Shown: piece after piece, positions 3,056-32,541 of the stretch
How the letters are laid out: every line of letters begins with the position of its first letter
How positions within the stretch are numbered: position 1 is the first letter of the stretch
From: a virus
Reading direction: 5' to 3' (one strand)
Length of the DNA stretch: 39,294 nucleotides
UHGV virus genome: UHGV-0210057
Position numbers and translations under genes: made by a program
The notes under the pieces: model-generated
Database searches by the model: none
What the model was told of the DNA's origin: nothing
Seen by the model: the letters and a program-made list of their open reading frames with translations, nothing else

Positions 3056-3082
3056 AGCCCGCATAAGTGCGGGCTGCTTTTT
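3056..3082. terminator. Rho-independent terminator after emrE (bidirectional, shared with the convergent esterase gene)
   Basis: AGCCCGCA-TAAG-TGCGGGCT hairpin followed by GCTTTTT; the T-run overlaps the esterase stop codon. Confidence 0.6.
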
Positions 3083-4124
3083 ACAGGTCAGCGTTTGTTT
3101 TTTGTTGTTGGGTAGCGGTTTTTATGGGGGTTCCCAGTTTTTTAGTAAACCACTCAACAACTCTGTTTATAATAATTGGCTGATACCATGTATTATCGCC
3201 ATGCTCAGCCCCTTCTACCAGAACGTACTCAGCGTTATCGCCGTTCTTCTTCAACATCCTGAATAGTTTGGCGCTTTGCTCAGGTGAAACCAGAGTGTCT
3301 TTGCTACCATGCATAATAAGAAATGGGGGTTTTACTCCTTTCATATGTCCGATTGGACTGGCGTTTAGCGCTTTTTCTTTTGACGCTGTTATGGGGGCTC
3401 CCGCAAAACTTCTGAATGCAGGGCCATTGATCATTAAGGCTTCGGTTACGGCAGGAGATCGATGAACCTCCTGCACAGATTCAGGGAACCCCTCGCCAAT
3501 ATTCAACAAGTCAGAAATCCCATAAAGTGTGGCAACTGCCTGAACATCTGCTGATTGCTGAAGAAAGTCACCTTTATCAAAGGTTTTGTCACCATTTGTA
3601 GTTCCCATCATCTGGGCAAGCCATCCACCGGCAGAGTCACCCAGAACTCCGATTCTTTGAGGATCAATCCCATAATCGCTGGCATGTTCTCTCAAGTAAC
3701 GTATTGCAGCTTTCCCATCCTCAACTGGTGCTGGAAATGTATCAGGAATTGTTCTGTATTCTACAGCGGCCACAACAAAACCAGCTTCAGCCAGAGCCAT
3801 TCTCATTTCAATAAATTTGTCATGTTCAGAAGACATGAATCCGCCGCCGGGATAATAAATAATGGCTGGTTTTAAATCATTTGTTCGTGGGACAAGAACT
3901 GACATGTGAAGCTGTCTGACAGAACGAGTTCCTTTTATCTGGGAATAAACAACATCACCAATGAGATCGACCTGGTTTCTGGTCGGTGAAACACTAATGA
4001 TATCTGCACCCGGGGTGTAACCAGGAAGATTAGTCTGGACAGGTGTTGCACAACTCCCGACCGACATGGCCATTGACATACCATACAATAGTGTTGCAGA
4101 TGATAATATCTTGTTAATTTTCAT
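3081..4124 (-). CDS. Secreted or lipoprotein alpha/beta-hydrolase (esterase/lipase-like)
   Basis: 347 aa; N-terminal signal peptide with possible lipobox (MSMAMSVGSC); GDSAGG nucleophile motif and HGSKD; opposite strand to flanking phage genes with its own terminator (moron organisation). Confidence 0.75.
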   Translation of the reverse strand: MKINKILSSATLLYGMSMAMSVGSCATPVQTNLPGYTPGADIISVSPTRNQVDLIGDVVYSQIKGTRSVRQLHMSVLVPRTNDLKPAIIYYPGGGFMSSEHDKFIEMRMALAEAGFVVAAVEYRTIPDTFPAPVEDGKAAIRYLREHASDYGIDPQRIGVLGDSAGGWLAQMMGTTNGDKTFDKGDFLQQSADVQAVATLYGISDLLNIGEGFPESVQEVHRSPAVTEALMINGPAFRSFAGAPITASKEKALNASPIGHMKGVKPPFLIMHGSKDTLVSPEQSAKLFRMLKKNGDNAEYVLVEGAEHGDNTWYQPIIINRVVEWFTKKLGTPIKTATQQQKTNADL

Positions 4125-5934: not shown

Positions 5935-5957
5935 CCTGATTTTTGTGGGGAAAGTTG

Positions 5958-6341
5958 ATGCGTGATATTCAGATGGTTCTTGAGCGTTGGGGGGCATGGG
6001 CGGCTAATAACCACGAGGATGTAACCTGGTCATCCATTGCTGCCGGTTTTAAGGGATTAATTCCTTCAAAAGTAAAGTCTCGCCCACAATGCTGTGATGA
6101 TGACGCGATGATTGTTTGTGGATGTATGGCTCGCCTGAAAAAGAACAATAGCTATTTGCATGATTTACTAGTGGATTATTATGTCGGGGGTATGACATTT
6201 ATGTCACTGGCAAGTAAGCATTGTTGCTCTGATGGTTATATCGGGAAAAAGTTACAGAAGGCTGAGGGAATAATTGAAGGGATGTTAATGGCATTAGATA
6301 TACGGTTAGAGATGGATATCGTTGTTACTAAGTCTAATTAA
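5958..6341 (+). CDS. quuD: Late-gene antiterminator Q (phage 82/21 QuuD-like)
   Basis: 127 aa from [22 protein letters not shown]... with Cys-rich zinc-binding region; located after the nin genes and before the lysis genes. Confidence 0.8.
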
Positions 6342-6530: not shown

Positions 6531-7628
6531 TTAGAACTGGTAAACCAGTCCTACGGCAACGATGTCGTCAGTGCTTACACCAAGTGCTTTAGTGAAGTCG
6601 TTTTTGTCAAGCAGGTTGATCTTGTAATCAACGAAAGTAGACATGTTTTTGTTGAAGTAATAAGTTGCACCTACATCAACATATTTGACTAAGTCCTGAT
6701 CGCCCCATACTCCAAGATCCTTACCTTTAGATTGCAGGTAAGCAACGGACGGACGCAGACCGAAATCGAACTGATATTGTGCAACAGCTTCGAAGTTTTG
6801 AGCTTTATTAGCAACGAAGTGATCAGCAAATACAGTCATATTCTGGGTTTCAGAATAGGTAGTGGCCAGGTAAATGTTGTTAGCGTCATATTTCAGACCT
6901 GCGGCCCAAATTTCTGCATTTTTACCGGAAGCAAATACTTCAGGAAGAACTTTGCCTGCATTGACTTGAGTGTCGGTACGATCAGATTTCGCATAAGTCG
7001 CACCAATGCCGAATCCTTCGTATTCATAGGTAGCAGAGAAACCGAATCCATCACCGTTACCTTCGGTGTAGTTATCGAAATCGCTACGATCGTTTTTACC
7101 TTGGTACTGAGCAGCAAAGTTCAGACCATCAACCAGACCAAAGAAGTCGTTGTTACGGTAAGTTGCAACACCAGTTGCACGTTGAGTCATGAACACGTCG
7201 GTTTGAGTCCAAGTATCACCACCGAATTCTGGCAGGACGTCAGTCCACGCACCGATGTCGTATGCTACACCGTAGTTACGACCGTAATCGATGGAACCGT
7301 AGTCACCGAATTTCAGGCCTGCAAATGCAAGACGGGTTTTGTCTTTGGCGGAACCTTGAGATTCAGCGCGGTTGCCTTTGAATTCATATTCCCACTGACC
7401 GAAACCAGTCAGTTGATCGTTGATTTGGGTTTCACCTTTGAAGCCCAGACGAACATAAGTAGTATCACCATCATCTGCATCGTTAGAGGAAAAGTAGTGC
7501 TTGGCATTAACTTTCCCGTACAGATCCAGCTTGTTACTGTCTTTATTATAAATTTCAGCTGCCTGAGCAGACATCGCCATCAGTACTGATGCAGCTACAG
7601 CAGAAATTGCCACTGTTAATTTTTTCAT
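6531..7628 (-). CDS. nmpC: OmpC-family general porin (NmpC/Lc-like), apparently intact
   Basis: 365 aa from [23 protein letters not shown] signal peptide; AEIYNKD..LDLYGK start, porin motifs and C-terminal ...VGLVYQF; same position and orientation as nmpC in DLP12. Confidence 0.9.
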
Positions 7629-7706
7629 CGTGAGCCCTTTTTTTGAACTATTATTAAAAAATGATGTCACTGCGCGATAAATATTCATCTAATCAATATG
7701 ATTATT

Positions 7707-8753
7707 TCAAGATGTTGTATGGGTCCACCACATATTGCAATTTTTATTCTCTTTTAAAATATATTCCACGGGCGTCATTAGTGCGAGCGCCTTGTGGGGT
7801 CTTTTGCTGTTATACAGCACCAGATATTCCGCCAGCTTCTGGTTAAATAGCGCCAGATCTTCAAAGAGTAAAATCTCATTAAATTCAATAAACTGCTCTC
7901 TTAACGTCCGGTTAAAACGTTCACAGATAGCGTTCATTTTTGGCGTGTAGGGATAGGTCCAGAGGTGTTTGATAGCGGCTTCCTGCAGCGTTTTGTCGAA
8001 GTTTCCCAGGAACTCTTTTCCGTTATCTGTGATTATCTGGCTGATACCGACCGGGAACAACCGGGCTGCGCGGCTGAAGAAGTGATTGACGATATCACTG
8101 TTGAGTGACGGCACAGCCAGCGCCAGCGCGTAATTGCTGCATTCGTCGATCATGGTGATGACATAGCGACGCAGTTCGCCCATTCTGAGCTCAATGGCGT
8201 CCATCCCAATGAGCTCACCTGTCTTTACCGGGCGGTAGTGCTTTGGCCTGCGGGGTTTGGCAGACCGCTTTTTGACAAGCAGTGCCTTCCCCCGCGATCC
8301 CAGACGCACAGGTATCATCCGCATTTTATCATGTGCGGCAGCGATCATTCTGCCGATGGTGGAAACACTCGGACAGGCCAGATAGCGCTGTTCGCACCAG
8401 GGCTTCAGGCGAACAAAAATCTGCTCTTTACCGAGGTTCGGCAGCTCTGTCCTGAGGCGTCGAATCTCTTTCAGCACATCGGGATGCCAGTGTTTTTTTC
8501 GTCGCACCAGAGGTGCCTTACTGTGCGGGATTAGCCCCTCAGGTCCTTCCTTGTTCAGTAACTGACGCCACCAGTAAAGCGTGCGGCAGGACACGCCAAA
8601 GGCTTCAGAAGCTGCAGAAATACCGTGTTTATCCCAGAAGTGCAGAGCCTTCATTCTCATTGTTGCTATATCAGCCATCACTGAAAGCCTCAACGCATAA
8701 TCGGCCGTTTGGTAGTACTTAGGATAGCCAACCATCAGATGCTGCATTTGCAT
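7707..8753 (-). CDS. IS transposase (single ORF with N-terminal HTH and rve/DDE integrase core; IS481-family-like)
   Basis: 348 aa; rve-type catalytic region (ITDNGKEF...YTPKMNAICERFNRTLREQ...YNSKRPHKAL); AAGGGGAG RBS before the start. Confidence 0.8.
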   Translation of the reverse strand: MQMQHLMVGYPKYYQTADYALRLSVMADIATMRMKALHFWDKHGISAASEAFGVSCRTLYWWRQLLNKEGPEGLIPHSKAPLVRRKKHWHPDVLKEIRRLRTELPNLGKEQIFVRLKPWCEQRYLACPSVSTIGRMIAAAHDKMRMIPVRLGSRGKALLVKKRSAKPRRPKHYRPVKTGELIGMDAIELRMGELRRYVITMIDECSNYALALAVPSLNSDIVNHFFSRAARLFPVGISQIITDNGKEFLGNFDKTLQEAAIKHLWTYPYTPKMNAICERFNRTLREQFIEFNEILLFEDLALFNQKLAEYLVLYNSKRPHKALALMTPVEYILKENKNCNMWWTHTTS

Positions 8754-29714: not shown

Positions 29715-30893
29715 TTACTGAAGTTTTCTTCTTGTGTATGTTAGTACATTAAATTTTTTAAACTTACTACACGGTGTCTCAATATATCTAAAACATAGCA
29801 ATGATATAAGCGTGATAAACCCAGAGAGGATTATAATAATAGCTGAAAATACAAGGCTGTTAATTTGATTAACATAGCTAACCGGAAGTATTATTTTAAA
29901 TGTTATAAAAAGTATAATGCCATGTAGAAGATACATGCTATATGTAGCTTCTCCAAAAACTTGACAGGTTTTTATCTTAAGAACTCCAAAAATATCGCAT
30001 CCATTTGATATCAGAATAAATGCAATACCACAGAGTGATATTGTTATTGGATTGTAAGGATTTGGAATTAAAAAACAAGTTACACATAAGATAACGATAA
30101 CGAATAAGCTTGATAATATTTTATTGAAAGGCAAGCTGTTAGGCAGTTTGTGATTTATTTTTGCTGCCAGATAACCAAAAACAAATGATAAAATATGTAT
30201 TTTTAATGATGGATAGAAAATAAAAGCAAATACACTCGCAATACTAAGAATTGTGTAAGTATTAAATTTGTCTCTTCTCATTATAAAAGCCATAAAAGGA
30301 AGAGATAAATAAAAAAACCATTCATAAACAAGTGACCACGGAACTCCGGCCATGATAAGCGACGTCTTGTGAAGACCGTTAACATCAGGCATTCCAAGGA
30401 AAGAAAAAGGAACCCATCTCGCCATAGATATTATGAGATTGGCAATTCCTGTGTTAATTTTCCAATCAGAAACATAGAACACAATTATGAATAGTAGAGA
30501 TAACGAAACCAGATACATAGGTGTTAGTCTCATTATTCTTGACCAAAATAAATCTTCCCAATTTACTGATTTATTCGAAATCAATTTCCCGAAGAACAAG
30601 AAGCCTGTAATCATAAAAAAGAAAATAACAGCTATTTTCCCAATATTAGTATAAAATAACGAATCAGGATCAGACCAAACTCCAGTATGTATGTATTGCC
30701 ACCAGAAACTGGAATGATGAAGGAAAACCATTAAAGCAAGAAATCCTCTAAGCCCATCAATTGATTCACTCCTTCCTTTGATAGGTGATAAGTGTGTTTC
30801 TGTGACAAATATTCTTGCAACCGAAAGTGAAGTAATCACCGATAAAGAAGCAATTAAAAAGCCATTAAATCCGTCAAACATAGAAATCTCCAT
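29715..30893 (-). CDS. Acyltransferase-3 family membrane protein (O-antigen acetyltransferase-like, Oac/OafA type)
   Basis: 392 aa, multiple TM helices, N-terminal motif R..S.DGLRGFLALMVFLHH typical of acyltransferase-3; strongly AT-rich; located between tailspike and integrase as in Sf6. Confidence 0.85.
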   Translation of the reverse strand: MEISMFDGFNGFLIASLSVITSLSVARIFVTETHLSPIKGRSESIDGLRGFLALMVFLHHSSFWWQYIHTGVWSDPDSLFYTNIGKIAVIFFFMITGFLFFGKLISNKSVNWEDLFWSRIMRLTPMYLVSLSLLFIIVFYVSDWKINTGIANLIISMARWVPFSFLGMPDVNGLHKTSLIMAGVPWSLVYEWFFYLSLPFMAFIMRRDKFNTYTILSIASVFAFIFYPSLKIHILSFVFGYLAAKINHKLPNSLPFNKILSSLFVIVILCVTCFLIPNPYNPITISLCGIAFILISNGCDIFGVLKIKTCQVFGEATYSMYLLHGIILFITFKIILPVSYVNQINSLVFSAIIIILSGFITLISLLCFRYIETPCSKFKKFNVLTYTRRKLQ

Positions 30894-31207
30894 TACCCCT
30901 GTGTTTTTTGTACAATCAAAGATTTTGTGGGCACTAAGAAAATTAGTGTATATAAACCATGCTTAAATTGCATAAATATTGAATATAGCATCGATGGCTC
31001 ACTATCCTTACGTTATCAAAAAAATGTGTATACCGTGATTATGCTTGATAATTATTTGACCGCAGTGTTGTATAGTCTACTGCTTTCTAATCTACAAGCA
31101 TCATGGCATAAATCCAGTATCTAGAACTAATAAGATTAACAATTGGATCACAAGTGATTGGCTTAGTTCACTGAGCCATGCATTGTTACCCTCTGATTAA
31201 AGATTAA

Positions 31208-32401
31208 TTACTCAGCCTTCCCATCAAGCCATTCCGCCCACCACTGCATCATTTCTCTGCGCTTATCTAGATACTGAGCATGGTTGTAAATCCCGCGCAC
31301 AGATCCGCCGTTGGCATGTGCCAGTTGCACTTCAATGGCGTCGGCAGGCCATTCGTGCTCGTTCATAATCGTGCTGAATTCATGCCTGAATCCGTGACCG
31401 CTTTCCAGCCCCTCATAGCCGATTTGTTTGATCACAAGCAATACCGCGTTCTCGCAGATTGGTTTCTTCTTATCGTTGCGCCCGGCAAAAACAAACTCTG
31501 AGACTGGTTTGGTGATTGAGCTTAGCGTAGTAAGAAGTTCAACCACCTGGTCTGACATAGGAACCACATGAATTTTGCGTCCCTTCATCACACTGGCGTC
31601 GATGGTGATAATCCTGTTTTCAAAATCGACGTTCTTCCATTGCATGGAACGAAGCTCTTTCGTTCTTAGGGCTGTGTAGCGTAAGACTTTGGTCGCAATG
31701 AGCGATACGATACTTCCTGAAAATGTTGCCAGTGCTTTGTTGAATGCAGGGATCTGGTCTGCTGGAAGAAACGGGAAGTTCTTCTTGCGGTATCCTTTCA
31801 TGGCGTCTGCAAGGTCAGGTGCCGGGTTATATTTAGCCCTTCCGGTGACAATAGCGTAACGAAAAACCTCGCCGCATCTTCTGCGGGCTTTATTGGCTCG
31901 CTCCATTGCACCGCGATCTTCAAATCTGCGGATTACTTCCAGCAGTTGCATCGGCTCAATATCCTGAATCTCAAGGCCGCCGATGATGGGTAAAATGTCG
32001 TCATCAAACATTTTTGCAAGTTCATTTGCATAGCCTACTGACCAGACTTGCTTCTTGTGCTCGTACCATTCCTTGTAAATGGCGCTAAAGGAATTGTTGT
32101 TAGACGAAGCCTTTTTCGCCTTTACCGGATCGATGCCAACCGAGATGTCTTTCCTCGCGGTCCATGCTTTATCCCTTGCCTCCTGCAAAGTCATAAGCGG
32201 ATATTTTCCGACAGTCAGGATTTTCTCCTTACCGTCAATCTTGTAGCGAAGCTGCCATACCTTTTTCCCTGATACAGGGACATAAAGGTACAGGCCATTA
32301 CCATCGAGAAGGCGGTATGGTTTTTCTTTCGGCTTTGCTGCTTCAATCTGCTTAACGGTGAGCATGGGTAAAAATCCGGTGGGTAAAATTATTTTATCCA
32401 C
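31208..32401 (-). CDS. int: Tyrosine integrase, P4-type (N-terminal DUF4102-like arm-binding domain)
   Basis: 397 aa; N-terminal LTVKQIEAAKPKEKPYRLLDGNGLYLYV..GKKVWQLRY motif, C-terminal catalytic region (HGFRHEF...LAHA......Y). Confidence 0.9.
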   Translation of the reverse strand: MDKIILPTGFLPMLTVKQIEAAKPKEKPYRLLDGNGLYLYVPVSGKKVWQLRYKIDGKEKILTVGKYPLMTLQEARDKAWTARKDISVGIDPVKAKKASSNNNSFSAIYKEWYEHKKQVWSVGYANELAKMFDDDILPIIGGLEIQDIEPMQLLEVIRRFEDRGAMERANKARRRCGEVFRYAIVTGRAKYNPAPDLADAMKGYRKKNFPFLPADQIPAFNKALATFSGSIVSLIATKVLRYTALRTKELRSMQWKNVDFENRIITIDASVMKGRKIHVVPMSDQVVELLTTLSSITKPVSEFVFAGRNDKKKPICENAVLLVIKQIGYEGLESGHGFRHEFSTIMNEHEWPADAIEVQLAHANGGSVRGIYNHAQYLDKRREMMQWWAEWLDGKAE

Positions 32402-32526: not shown

Positions 32527-32541
32527 TGGTGTCCCCTGCAG
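32527..32541 (-). other. Candidate attP core resembling a tRNA 3' end (argW-like)
   Basis: Minus strand reads CTGCAGGGGACACCA (acceptor-stem 3' strand, discriminator and CCA), matching my recollection of the argW tRNA-Arg(CCU) 3' end; lies in the 213-bp gap between alpA and int. Confidence 0.5.

Follow-up and report, generated by a model that had tools for sequence, protein, structure and literature searches.

The window analyzed here, which is the whole 39,294-nucleotide stretch of the virus genome UHGV-0210057, carries on its minus strand a gene for a membrane protein of the acyltransferase-3 (AT3) family, lying between the tailspike gene (27319..29655, plus strand, PF09008) and the gene of a tyrosine integrase (Table 1). 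The structural genes of the window are 96–97% identical to those of phages HK620 and Sf6, which identifies it as a Lederbergvirus-type genome, and the early region is lambdoid. The order at the locus is tailspike (plus strand), terminators, acyltransferase (minus strand), a 314-bp spacer, integrase (minus strand), attP, and early genes. The annotated Sf6 genome reads tailspike (plus), terminator, oac (minus), promoter, int (minus), and attP, an arrangement equal in order and strands, so that the placement beside int proposed by analogy with oac in a preliminary description of this DNA is borne out. Within the genus Lederbergvirus, a pattern of accessory genes located behind the tailspike has been stated (PMC10408124), and the location and composition typical of its serotype-converting genes, i.e., a position behind the tailspike and near int and att, a terminator of their own, and low GC content, are found here as well. 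The gene is most likely an accessory gene carried by a temperate podophage of the HK620/Sf6 type with argW as its integration site, and it is an uncharacterized addition to the well-known class of serotype-converting genes. The reading offered in the preliminary description, lysogenic conversion through acetylation of a surface glycan, finds support in homology and genomic context.

Table 1. Features of the window around the acyltransferase gene.
Feature	Coordinates	Strand	Basis and remarks
Tailspike N-terminal head-binding domain, P22-like backbone	27319..27659	+	PF09008, 221 bits
Tailspike receptor-binding part, right-handed β-helix depolymerase-type fold; first half of the low-GC cassette	27660..29655	+	Structural model
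Convergent spacer with two hairpins, terminators for tailspike (+) and acyltransferase (-)	29655..29714		RNA folds
Acyltransferase-3 (AT3-only) gene	29715..30881	-	388 aa from the preferred start; PF01757, phrog_3333, RefSeq call
AT-rich non-coding spacer between int and acyltransferase gene, 314 bp	30894..31207	-	GC 0.331
IntS-type tyrosine integrase	31208..32401	-	PF00589, PF22022, PF13356; upstream of and co-directional with the acyltransferase gene
attP core ATGGTGTCCCCTGCAG	32526..32541		Matches the 3' end of tRNA-Arg argW; identical to the annotated Sf6 core

The acyltransferase gene occupies an uninterrupted minus-strand open reading frame (29715..30893) of 392 codons, exactly as originally described, and at the local base composition that many open codons would arise by chance with a probability of ~6e-13. 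Two ATG codons are candidate starts, at 30893 (392 aa) and at 30881 (388 aa). The sequence GGAG is found 6 nt 5' of the second, which is also the start used in the RefSeq protein WP_157924437.1, and 30881 appears to be the more likely start; residue numbers throughout refer to the 392-aa form. Hydropathy and structural modeling agree on 11 membrane helices, and the polytopic nature of the protein is thereby confirmed. The AT-richness of the gene is as marked as had been claimed, with a GC content of 0.316 and a GC3 of 0.263, compared with 0.464 for the window and 0.477 for each of the integrase and capsid genes. The gene is intact in a full-length alignment with 67 homologs, in which the AT3 hallmark residues are all invariant, and in 10 of 11 distinct contigs sampled elsewhere. 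Comparison with its 67% identical relative yielded a dN of ~0.23 and a dS of ~1.5, the latter near saturation, and the resulting low dN/dS of ~0.15 indicates purifying selection on the gene.

A Pfam search returned a near full-length match to PF01757 (profile positions 3–318 of 326, residues 44–361, 100.7 bits against a cutoff of 31, E = 1.1e-28), and the best PHROGs assignment was to phrog_3333, 'O-acetyltransferase' (5e-53). No curated NCBIfam equivalog was matched, the sole match being a partial one of 30 bits to VanT (cutoff 900), with no other family at E <= 0.01. Orthology to OpgC/MdoC or WecH was rejected because no NCBIfam equivalog matched, and the AT3-SGNH architecture of OafA, OafB/GtrC family 2, and OatA was rejected because the protein has neither an SGNH domain nor any second Pfam domain. 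It stops at residue 392, where a short basic tail follows the last membrane helix, and the lack of a second domain makes it an AT3-only protein, unlike OafA or OafB. An AlphaFold2 model based on 68 homologs reached a predicted local distance difference test (pLDDT) score of 92.5 and a predicted template modeling (pTM) score of 0.92. It contains an N-terminal membrane helix and ten more, and the third core helix is followed by a short, helical re-entrant segment. A ten-helix transmembrane (TM) AT3 core fold is thus predicted, and the re-entrant segment and ten-helix core agree with the arrangement of published AT3 models (PMC9833829). No sequence match for the acyltransferase was present in the PDB, and a Foldseek search of the PDB found nothing significant, the best resemblance being weak (8jkv/8jl4, TMq 0.38); one viral model gave a significant structural match (TMq 0.61). 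To our knowledge, no AT3 protein has a solved structure that could serve for comparison.

The AT3 signature noted in the preliminary description is present as G-R-S-E-S-I-D46-G-L-R49-G...H59-H60. R49 and H60 constitute the R/K-X10-H motif, which lies in the first core TM helix and corresponds to R14 and H25 in OafA (PMC9558356); neither residue varies in the alignments of 13 and 68 sequences, and they align with R47/H58 of OacB and R11/H22 of Sf6 Oac. The cytoplasmic RXXR motif, here R119-I-M-R122, is invariant as well, aligns with R116/R119 of OacB and R73/R76 of Oac, and has been found to be essential in Oac, OafA, OafB, and OacB (PMC8952252, PMC4413052). Further positions invariant in both alignments are D46, the FFMITG segment, E191 within the W-x-L-x-x-E-W core of the WSLVYEW segment, and Y321, L322, H324, and G325 of the YSMYLLHG segment. 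Mutagenesis of OacB revealed that R47, H58, W71, F98, R116, R119, and S146 are essential (PMC8952252). Scripted column mapping places these residues at R49, H60, W73, F100, R119, R122, and G149, respectively, so that six of the seven are kept. The residues related to chemistry appear to be intact, and the segment most likely to read the acceptor seems to differ from that of OacB.

Among 50,697 phage records, the best protein match is the OacB protein of Sf101, which is aligned to 95% of the query at 40% identity (likewise 40% over 376 aa when the two proteins are compared), which was shown by nuclear magnetic resonance to O-acetylate the Shigella flexneri O-antigen (PMC4159516), and which modifies the 3/4-O positions of RhaIII and the 6-O position of N-acetylglucosamine (GlcNAc). 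OacB, like the protein here, is AT3-only; each is ~390 aa long and is predicted to have 11 TM helices, composed of an N-terminal helix and a 10-helix core, and both contain the motifs DGxRGxLAxxVxxHH, FFxITG(F/Y)LF, SRxxR, WxLxYEWxFY, and YSxYLLHG. Both genes also lie between tailspike and int on a Lederbergvirus. The two differ in that their identity is 40%, the receptor-binding part of the Sf101 tailspike is unrelated, the attachment site is argW here and sbcB in Sf101, and the host has an O48 genotype here as opposed to the Rha3-GlcNAc backbone of S. flexneri. By sequence, the protein appears to belong to the same subfamily as OacB and OacC without being an OacB ortholog.

The comparators named in the preliminary description, Sf6 Oac and OafA, have to give way to OacB as the closest characterized relative. 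Sf6 Oac was rejected for that position, with 30% pairwise identity over only 107 aa, no tblastn match at 1e-3, and 19% identity in the multiple alignment. The Oac system (OacA) nevertheless has the same gene order and strands, an integrase that is 97–99% identical, the same attP core, and the same R...H and RxxR motifs, while Oac itself is shorter (333 aa), has no counterpart of the extra N-terminal helix or of W73, and belongs to another AT3 subfamily. OafA and OafB (GtrC family 2) of Salmonella share the essential arginines and histidine in their AT3 membrane domain, but each is ~640 aa long and has a second, periplasmic SGNH domain (AT3-SGNH architecture), whereas the protein here ends after the membrane domain. 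Two of these systems provide precedents for protection from a phage's own tailspike: Oac blocks the endorhamnosidase tailspike of Sf6 (PMC9558356), and GtrC of the BTP1 prophage, an O-antigen acetylase, protects the lysogen's O-antigen from the tailspike of the same prophage (PMC4413052). Blocking of the own tailspike has also been stated generally for Lederbergviruses (PMC10408124).

An identical 388-aa protein is deposited at NCBI as an unnamed 'acyltransferase [Escherichia coli]'. The next relatives are 67%, 65% (Enterobacter hormaechei), 50%, and 49% identical, followed by many proteobacterial proteins at ~35–45%. At the DNA level, the gene is absent from all of the phage records and present in one of 5,426 complete E. 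coli genomes, that of strain 18KM2445 (dog, Switzerland), on which a literature search found nothing. The gene for the 50% relative, P0004, was observed in another setting (L020:1822-4592), directly 3' of a gene for a 509-aa sulfatase-family protein (PF00884, a family that includes phosphoethanolamine transferases) and near phage holin and endolysin genes, where the two could possibly form an accessory unit that modifies lipopolysaccharide.

In local BLAST comparisons, homology to the Sf6 and Sf101 backbone, which amounts to 87–94% DNA identity in the head-binding part of the tailspike gene, stops at 27659, where the head-binding domain finishes, and resumes at 31210-31216 in the last codons of int. 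The intervening 3.5-kb gap (27660-31209) corresponds exactly to a block of low GC content made up of the receptor-binding part of the tailspike gene (0.395), the acyltransferase gene, and the spacer upstream of it. The 67% and 65% acyltransferase relatives sit in another phage backbone, the former at L010/L011, from an enterobacterium with a thrS gene 87% identical to that of E. coli, and the latter at L012, from E. hormaechei. This backbone encodes an 825–834-aa tail protein (phrog_469), NlpC/P60, and DUF1833 and lacks the P22 head-binding domain and IntS. There, too, the acyltransferase gene is convergent to the tailspike gene, whose receptor-binding part is 55% identical over ~650 residues. 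In L012, a single continuous tract of 64% DNA identity (window positions 28102-30895) extends from the tailspike part through the intergenic region and across the acyltransferase gene, as far as the start codon of the latter. All 13 loci with an acyltransferase of at least 88% identity, which represent 11 distinct contigs, have the same tailspike part at 99–100% identity, and acyltransferase relatives of 50% identity or less have unrelated neighbors. The simplest reading of these comparisons is that the acyltransferase gene and the receptor-binding part of the tailspike were inherited together.

The receptor-binding part belongs to a rare family, with 43 members at E <= 1e-10 among 5.8 billion proteins, whose N-terminal adaptors vary among the P22 head-binding domain, a T7 tail-fiber N-terminus, and a tail-collar domain. 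A scan of contigs with the tailspike part yielded 48 pattern matches, none of which was confirmed. The structural model of the receptor-binding part is a β-helix whose best structural matches are lyases, epimerases, and glycosidases. Based on this predicted fold, which is of the β-helix depolymerase type, an esterase-type (deacetylating, SGNH) tailspike was rejected. A depolymerase-type spike would be compatible with acetyl groups hindering binding or cleavage, as for Sf6 Oac and BTP1 GtrC. The top neighbors of the model (receptor-binding part, window 27715-29655) are mostly enzymes acting on uronate polymers, including alginate epimerases and lyases, K5 and K1 lyases, and polygalacturonases, and the O-antigen region of the lysogen is followed by ugd and a gene for an NAD-dependent epimerase; lyase-type cleavage of a uronate-containing O-antigen by the tailspike is conceivable from the model.

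The place behind related tailspikes is not reserved for this acyltransferase clade. At four loci with an Enterobacter-type backbone (L024:8041-10955, L025:8044-10958, L041:8244-11158, and L042:8244-11209), the position of the L012 acyltransferase gene is filled by a gtrA-gtrB-gtrC-like operon, which consists of gtrA (PF04138), gtrB (GT2), and a gene for a 518–545-aa GtrC-like protein (PF19528) and which lies between the tailspike gene and a umuD-like gene, with the umuD/umuC pair next. The gtrABC genes take up the same convergent slot directly behind the same tailspike family and have the same role in receptor modification, but they form a three-gene glucosylation system that operates via undecaprenyl phosphate-linked glucose (Und-P-Glc) and bear no sequence relationship to the acyltransferase. 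A third setting is provided by E. coli 2017.17.01CC (L038:8001-11559; AP027822.1 1285569-1289127), in which the tailspike of a prophage encoding T7_gp14-type internal proteins has a 54% identical receptor-binding part, followed by a convergent gene for a 352-aa AT3 protein of another lineage (28% identity to the protein here over 204 aa). An O-antigen modifier was found directly behind the tailspike in five of the six temperate contexts examined. It may tentatively be proposed that receptor specificity and receptor masking form a two-gene unit that has moved among at least three temperate phage architectures (the P22-like podophage, the Enterobacter phage with lambda-like tail genes, and the prophage with T7_gp14-type internal proteins) and whose masking half is swappable, being this AT3 clade, an Oac-like AT3 protein, or gtrABC.

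The O-antigen of the lysogen offers a view of the likely acceptor. The O-antigen cluster of strain 18KM2445 comprises rfbBDAC, four glycosyltransferase genes, wzx, wzy, and galE/gne and contains no acetyltransferase gene. Its wzx-wzy segment occurs in only three of the 5,426 complete genomes. One of the three, JNEC-KY203, has been typed as O48:H45 (PMC13534694). A second one, 2017.17.01CC, is the source of the only further E. coli tailspike in the 43-member family, as surveyed in E. coli by DNA similarity and database names; the wzzB gene of this strain is annotated as a pseudogene. The presence of two unrelated prophages with related tailspikes in a rare O-genotype suggests that the E. coli members of the family recognize the O48 O-antigen, and the adjoining modifiers would then act on the same polymer. 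O48 contains one GlcNAc and one N-acetylgalactosamine (GalNAc) (PMC7685785), and the genes of the 18KM2445 cluster point to rhamnose as a further constituent.

What the analysis established directly is the protein family, the intactness of the gene, the conserved residues, the predicted fold, the cassette boundaries, the linkage to the tailspike, and the equivalence of the slot. On this basis, the gene probably encodes an OacB-like O-acetyltransferase that is functional and that acts in lysogens to convert their O48-type O-antigen. In the proposed mechanism, which extends to the acetyl donor, the O-antigen acceptor, the acetylated position, expression in the lysogen, and exclusion, the 11-helix inner-membrane protein would take up an acyl group, presumably from cytoplasmic acetyl-CoA, with the participation of R49, R119, and R122 at the cytoplasmic face and H60 in TM1. 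The acyl group would cross the membrane and be placed on a sugar of the host O-antigen at the periplasmic side, the acceptor most likely being the O48 O-antigen containing rhamnose, GlcNAc, and GalNAc. Acetylation would alter the epitope, leading to serotype conversion, and would probably hinder binding or cleavage by the phage's own β-helix depolymerase tailspike and by related tailspikes. The outcome would be superinfection exclusion at the level of the receptor, together with shielding of the lysogen's O-antigen from released tailspike. By analogy with Sf6 and BTP1, protection against the phage's own tailspike is, on balance, the favored function of the modification, although less firmly so than the acetylation itself.

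Several observations weigh against parts of this interpretation. The relatives with biochemical or serological data are at most 40% identical, and the proposed function derives from homology and context. The essential S146 of OacB corresponds to G149, in a variable periplasmic loop, and the column varies across the family (GNGTSSSSPGPSF); together with the 40% identity and the different O-antigen cluster, this substitution means that the acceptor and position used by OacB are not transferable to the protein considered here. The assignment to O48 is a matter of 99% wzx-wzy identity to one typed strain. AT3-only proteins have diverse acceptors, including O-antigen, enterobacterial common antigen, periplasmic glucans, poly-N-acetylglucosamine, Nod factors, and antibiotics (PMC9558356), so that family membership alone leaves the substrate unfixed. 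The pairing of tailspike and modifier is not universal, since locus L043 has no modifier in the available 1.6 kb, and lytic phages with the tailspike part (two Enterobacter phages and the E. coli phages TR3 and ZL19) have no relative of the acyltransferase. Upstream of the gene, no convincing promoter was found, with 11 sigma-70-like matches compared with 9.0 +/- 2.8 in shuffled sequences. Finally, one further copy of the gene (L027:1487-2650, on the same contig as L022, IMGVR_UViG_2534682160_000015) carries two frameshifts. This copy differs from the window by four substitutions, a -1 change in a T-run (nt 577), and a +1 change in an A-run (nt 732), so that 52 codons are scrambled and stop codons arise until the frame is regained, although the adjoining tailspike part matches that of the window at 100%. 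The copy is either a pseudogene or the product of homopolymer sequencing errors.

Of the alternatives, the one that survives best, although it is unlikely, accepts that the O-antigen is acetylated and places the benefit of this elsewhere than in self-protection: in evasion of immunity or antiserum, in exclusion of other phages, or in resistance to grazers, with the modification being neutral toward, or even required by, the phage's tailspike. OacB-type acetylation is partial in Shigella, reaching 30–70% at position 3 and 15–30% at position 4 (PMC4159516), and such incomplete modification may fail to exclude a phage. In addition, some tailspikes are reported to deacetylate the O-antigen or to need it to be acetylated (PMC6989608). 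The tailspike here, however, is modeled as a β-helix depolymerase and not as an SGNH esterase, and a shared glycan target is the best explanation for the tight linkage, physical as well as evolutionary, that modifier and receptor-binding part show in three backbones. Sf6 and BTP1 are direct precedents for self-protection.

It is still less probable that the acceptor is another envelope glycan and that adjacency to the tailspike merely reflects the usual insertion site of accessory genes. The many acceptors of AT3-only proteins (PMC9558356) are compatible with this view, as is the fact that the present clade is known from sequence only. A 44% relative, P0006, is found in ordinary chromosomal surroundings. 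For phage ZL19, with a tailspike part of 47% identity, the recorded host is BL21, a strain that lacks O-antigen. Acceptance of the O-antigen is favored over this possibility by the absence of a curated NCBIfam equivalog, which speaks against an OpgC or WecH ortholog, and by the nearest characterized relatives, all of which are O-antigen acetylases. Moreover, the slot is interchangeable with gtrABC, an O-antigen-specific system, the gene co-diverges with a depolymerase-type tailspike part, and the tailspike family occurs in two E. coli genomes that both have the same rare O-antigen cluster.

Transfer of an acyl group other than acetyl, e.g., succinyl or propionyl, is quite improbable. Although AT3 proteins of the IcaC and OpgC types have been linked to succinylation (PMC9558356) and the donor cannot be read from sequence, the characterized members of the nearest subfamily (OacB, OacC, Oac1b, and OacD) are all acetyltransferases, and the motifs DGxRGxLAxxVxxHH, FFxITG, and SRxxR are common to them and the protein described here. 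The least probable alternative, that of a silent or decaying passenger gene that is unexpressed or inactive in lysogens, could draw on the lack of a promoter above background, on the very low GC content that might attract silencing, and on the frameshifted L027 copy, but it is countered by the intact gene in the window and in nearly all distinct contigs, by the kept essential residues and strong purifying selection, by the gene's own Shine-Dalgarno sequence and terminator, and by the nature of the L027 indels, which lie in T- and A-runs with restoration of the frame, the pattern expected of homopolymer sequencing errors.

O-antigen acetylases of prophages alter serotype, vaccine epitopes, and phage susceptibility, and they are well studied in Shigella and Salmonella and far less so in commensal or pathogenic E. 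coli. Much of the framework is already known: the protein sequence is already in the databases under an unspecific name, Sf6 and Sf101 have the same architecture, and the biological idea is a textbook one whose principle is in the literature. Moderately interesting are the assignment to the rare O48 genotype, the recognition of modifier and receptor-binding part as one cassette across backbones, and the interchangeability of the modifier slot. If the proposed function is correct, the lysogen would display an acetylated variant of the rare O48 antigen that is invisible to in silico serotyping by wzx/wzy. If the cassette is a general phenomenon, O-antigen subtypes that genotyping misses and the phages that a lysogen excludes could be predicted from the gene following the tailspike of a prophage. 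The joint occurrence of acyltransferase clade and tailspike family on different backbones, with an interchangeable slot, provides a practical rule for deducing receptor specificity and exclusion from prophage sequence, with uses in host-range prediction for phage therapy and in tailspike engineering.

The sequences flanking the acyltransferase gene bear on its expression. The 59-bp spacer between the tailspike and acyltransferase genes (29656-29714) contains two stable hairpins, at ~29691-29714 and, GC-rich and flanked by an A-run and a T-run, at ~29653-29682. It folds with -26.9 kcal/mol on the minus strand (z -4.0) and -27.7 kcal/mol on the plus strand (z -6.6), and none of 200 shuffled sequences was as stable. 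The A-run on one side and the T-run on the other make the GC-rich hairpin plausibly bidirectional. The earlier statement that the gene is flanked by a bidirectional terminator therefore holds for its 3' side, and no terminator was found on its 5' side. A simple consensus terminator scan called neither of the spacer hairpins; its four sites, compared with ~1 expected, all fell within coding sequence, and none was called between int and the acyltransferase gene (30894..31207). This upstream spacer is not common to Sf6 and Sf101 or to the L010/L012 relatives, and it presumably carries the acyltransferase gene's own promoter; transcription from such a promoter and read-through from int are both possible. 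The paired GATC sites that signify phase variation in gtr operons were not seen upstream of the gene, where a single GATC is located at 31146.

For the integrase, RefSeq gives a length of 385 aa, which implies an ATG near 32365; the gene is annotated as intS in the lysogen, and its DNA is 97% identical to that of Sf6 from 31216 on. Identity to the prophage junction of 18KM2445 ends at 32541, within the tRNA-Arg gene adjoining yfdC, and the position of attP implies that the lysogen has both int and the acyltransferase gene at the prophage end next to argW, with one direction of transcription for the two. Phage Sf101 itself has a different integrase and integrates at sbcB. Just upstream of its oacB gene, however, it contains a 56-bp remnant (L013:3275-3330) of the 3' end of an IntS-type integrase gene, 87.5% identical to window positions 31210-31265, which suggests that the Sf101 oacB cassette may derive from an argW-integrating Sf6-like phage.

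Elsewhere in the window, an Rfam scan of its whole length gave no match. An open reading frame of 173 codons (26375-26896, minus strand), between the DNA-injection genes and a gene for a Mnt/Arc-like repressor, has no Pfam match; its position differs between the window and the closest prophage relatives, and in L003 a gene with a SocA_Panacea domain is located nearby. Other minus-strand accessory genes (3081-4124, 6531-7688, and 7707-8753) surround the gene for the Q antiterminator (5943-6341), where early and late regulation is encoded, and specify an α/β-hydrolase of the BD-FAE esterase family, a full-length Gram-negative porin (PF00267, 520 bits), and, adjoining the porin, an insertion sequence (IS)-type rve transposase. 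The porin gene is likely to be a second lysogenic-conversion gene affecting the cell surface.

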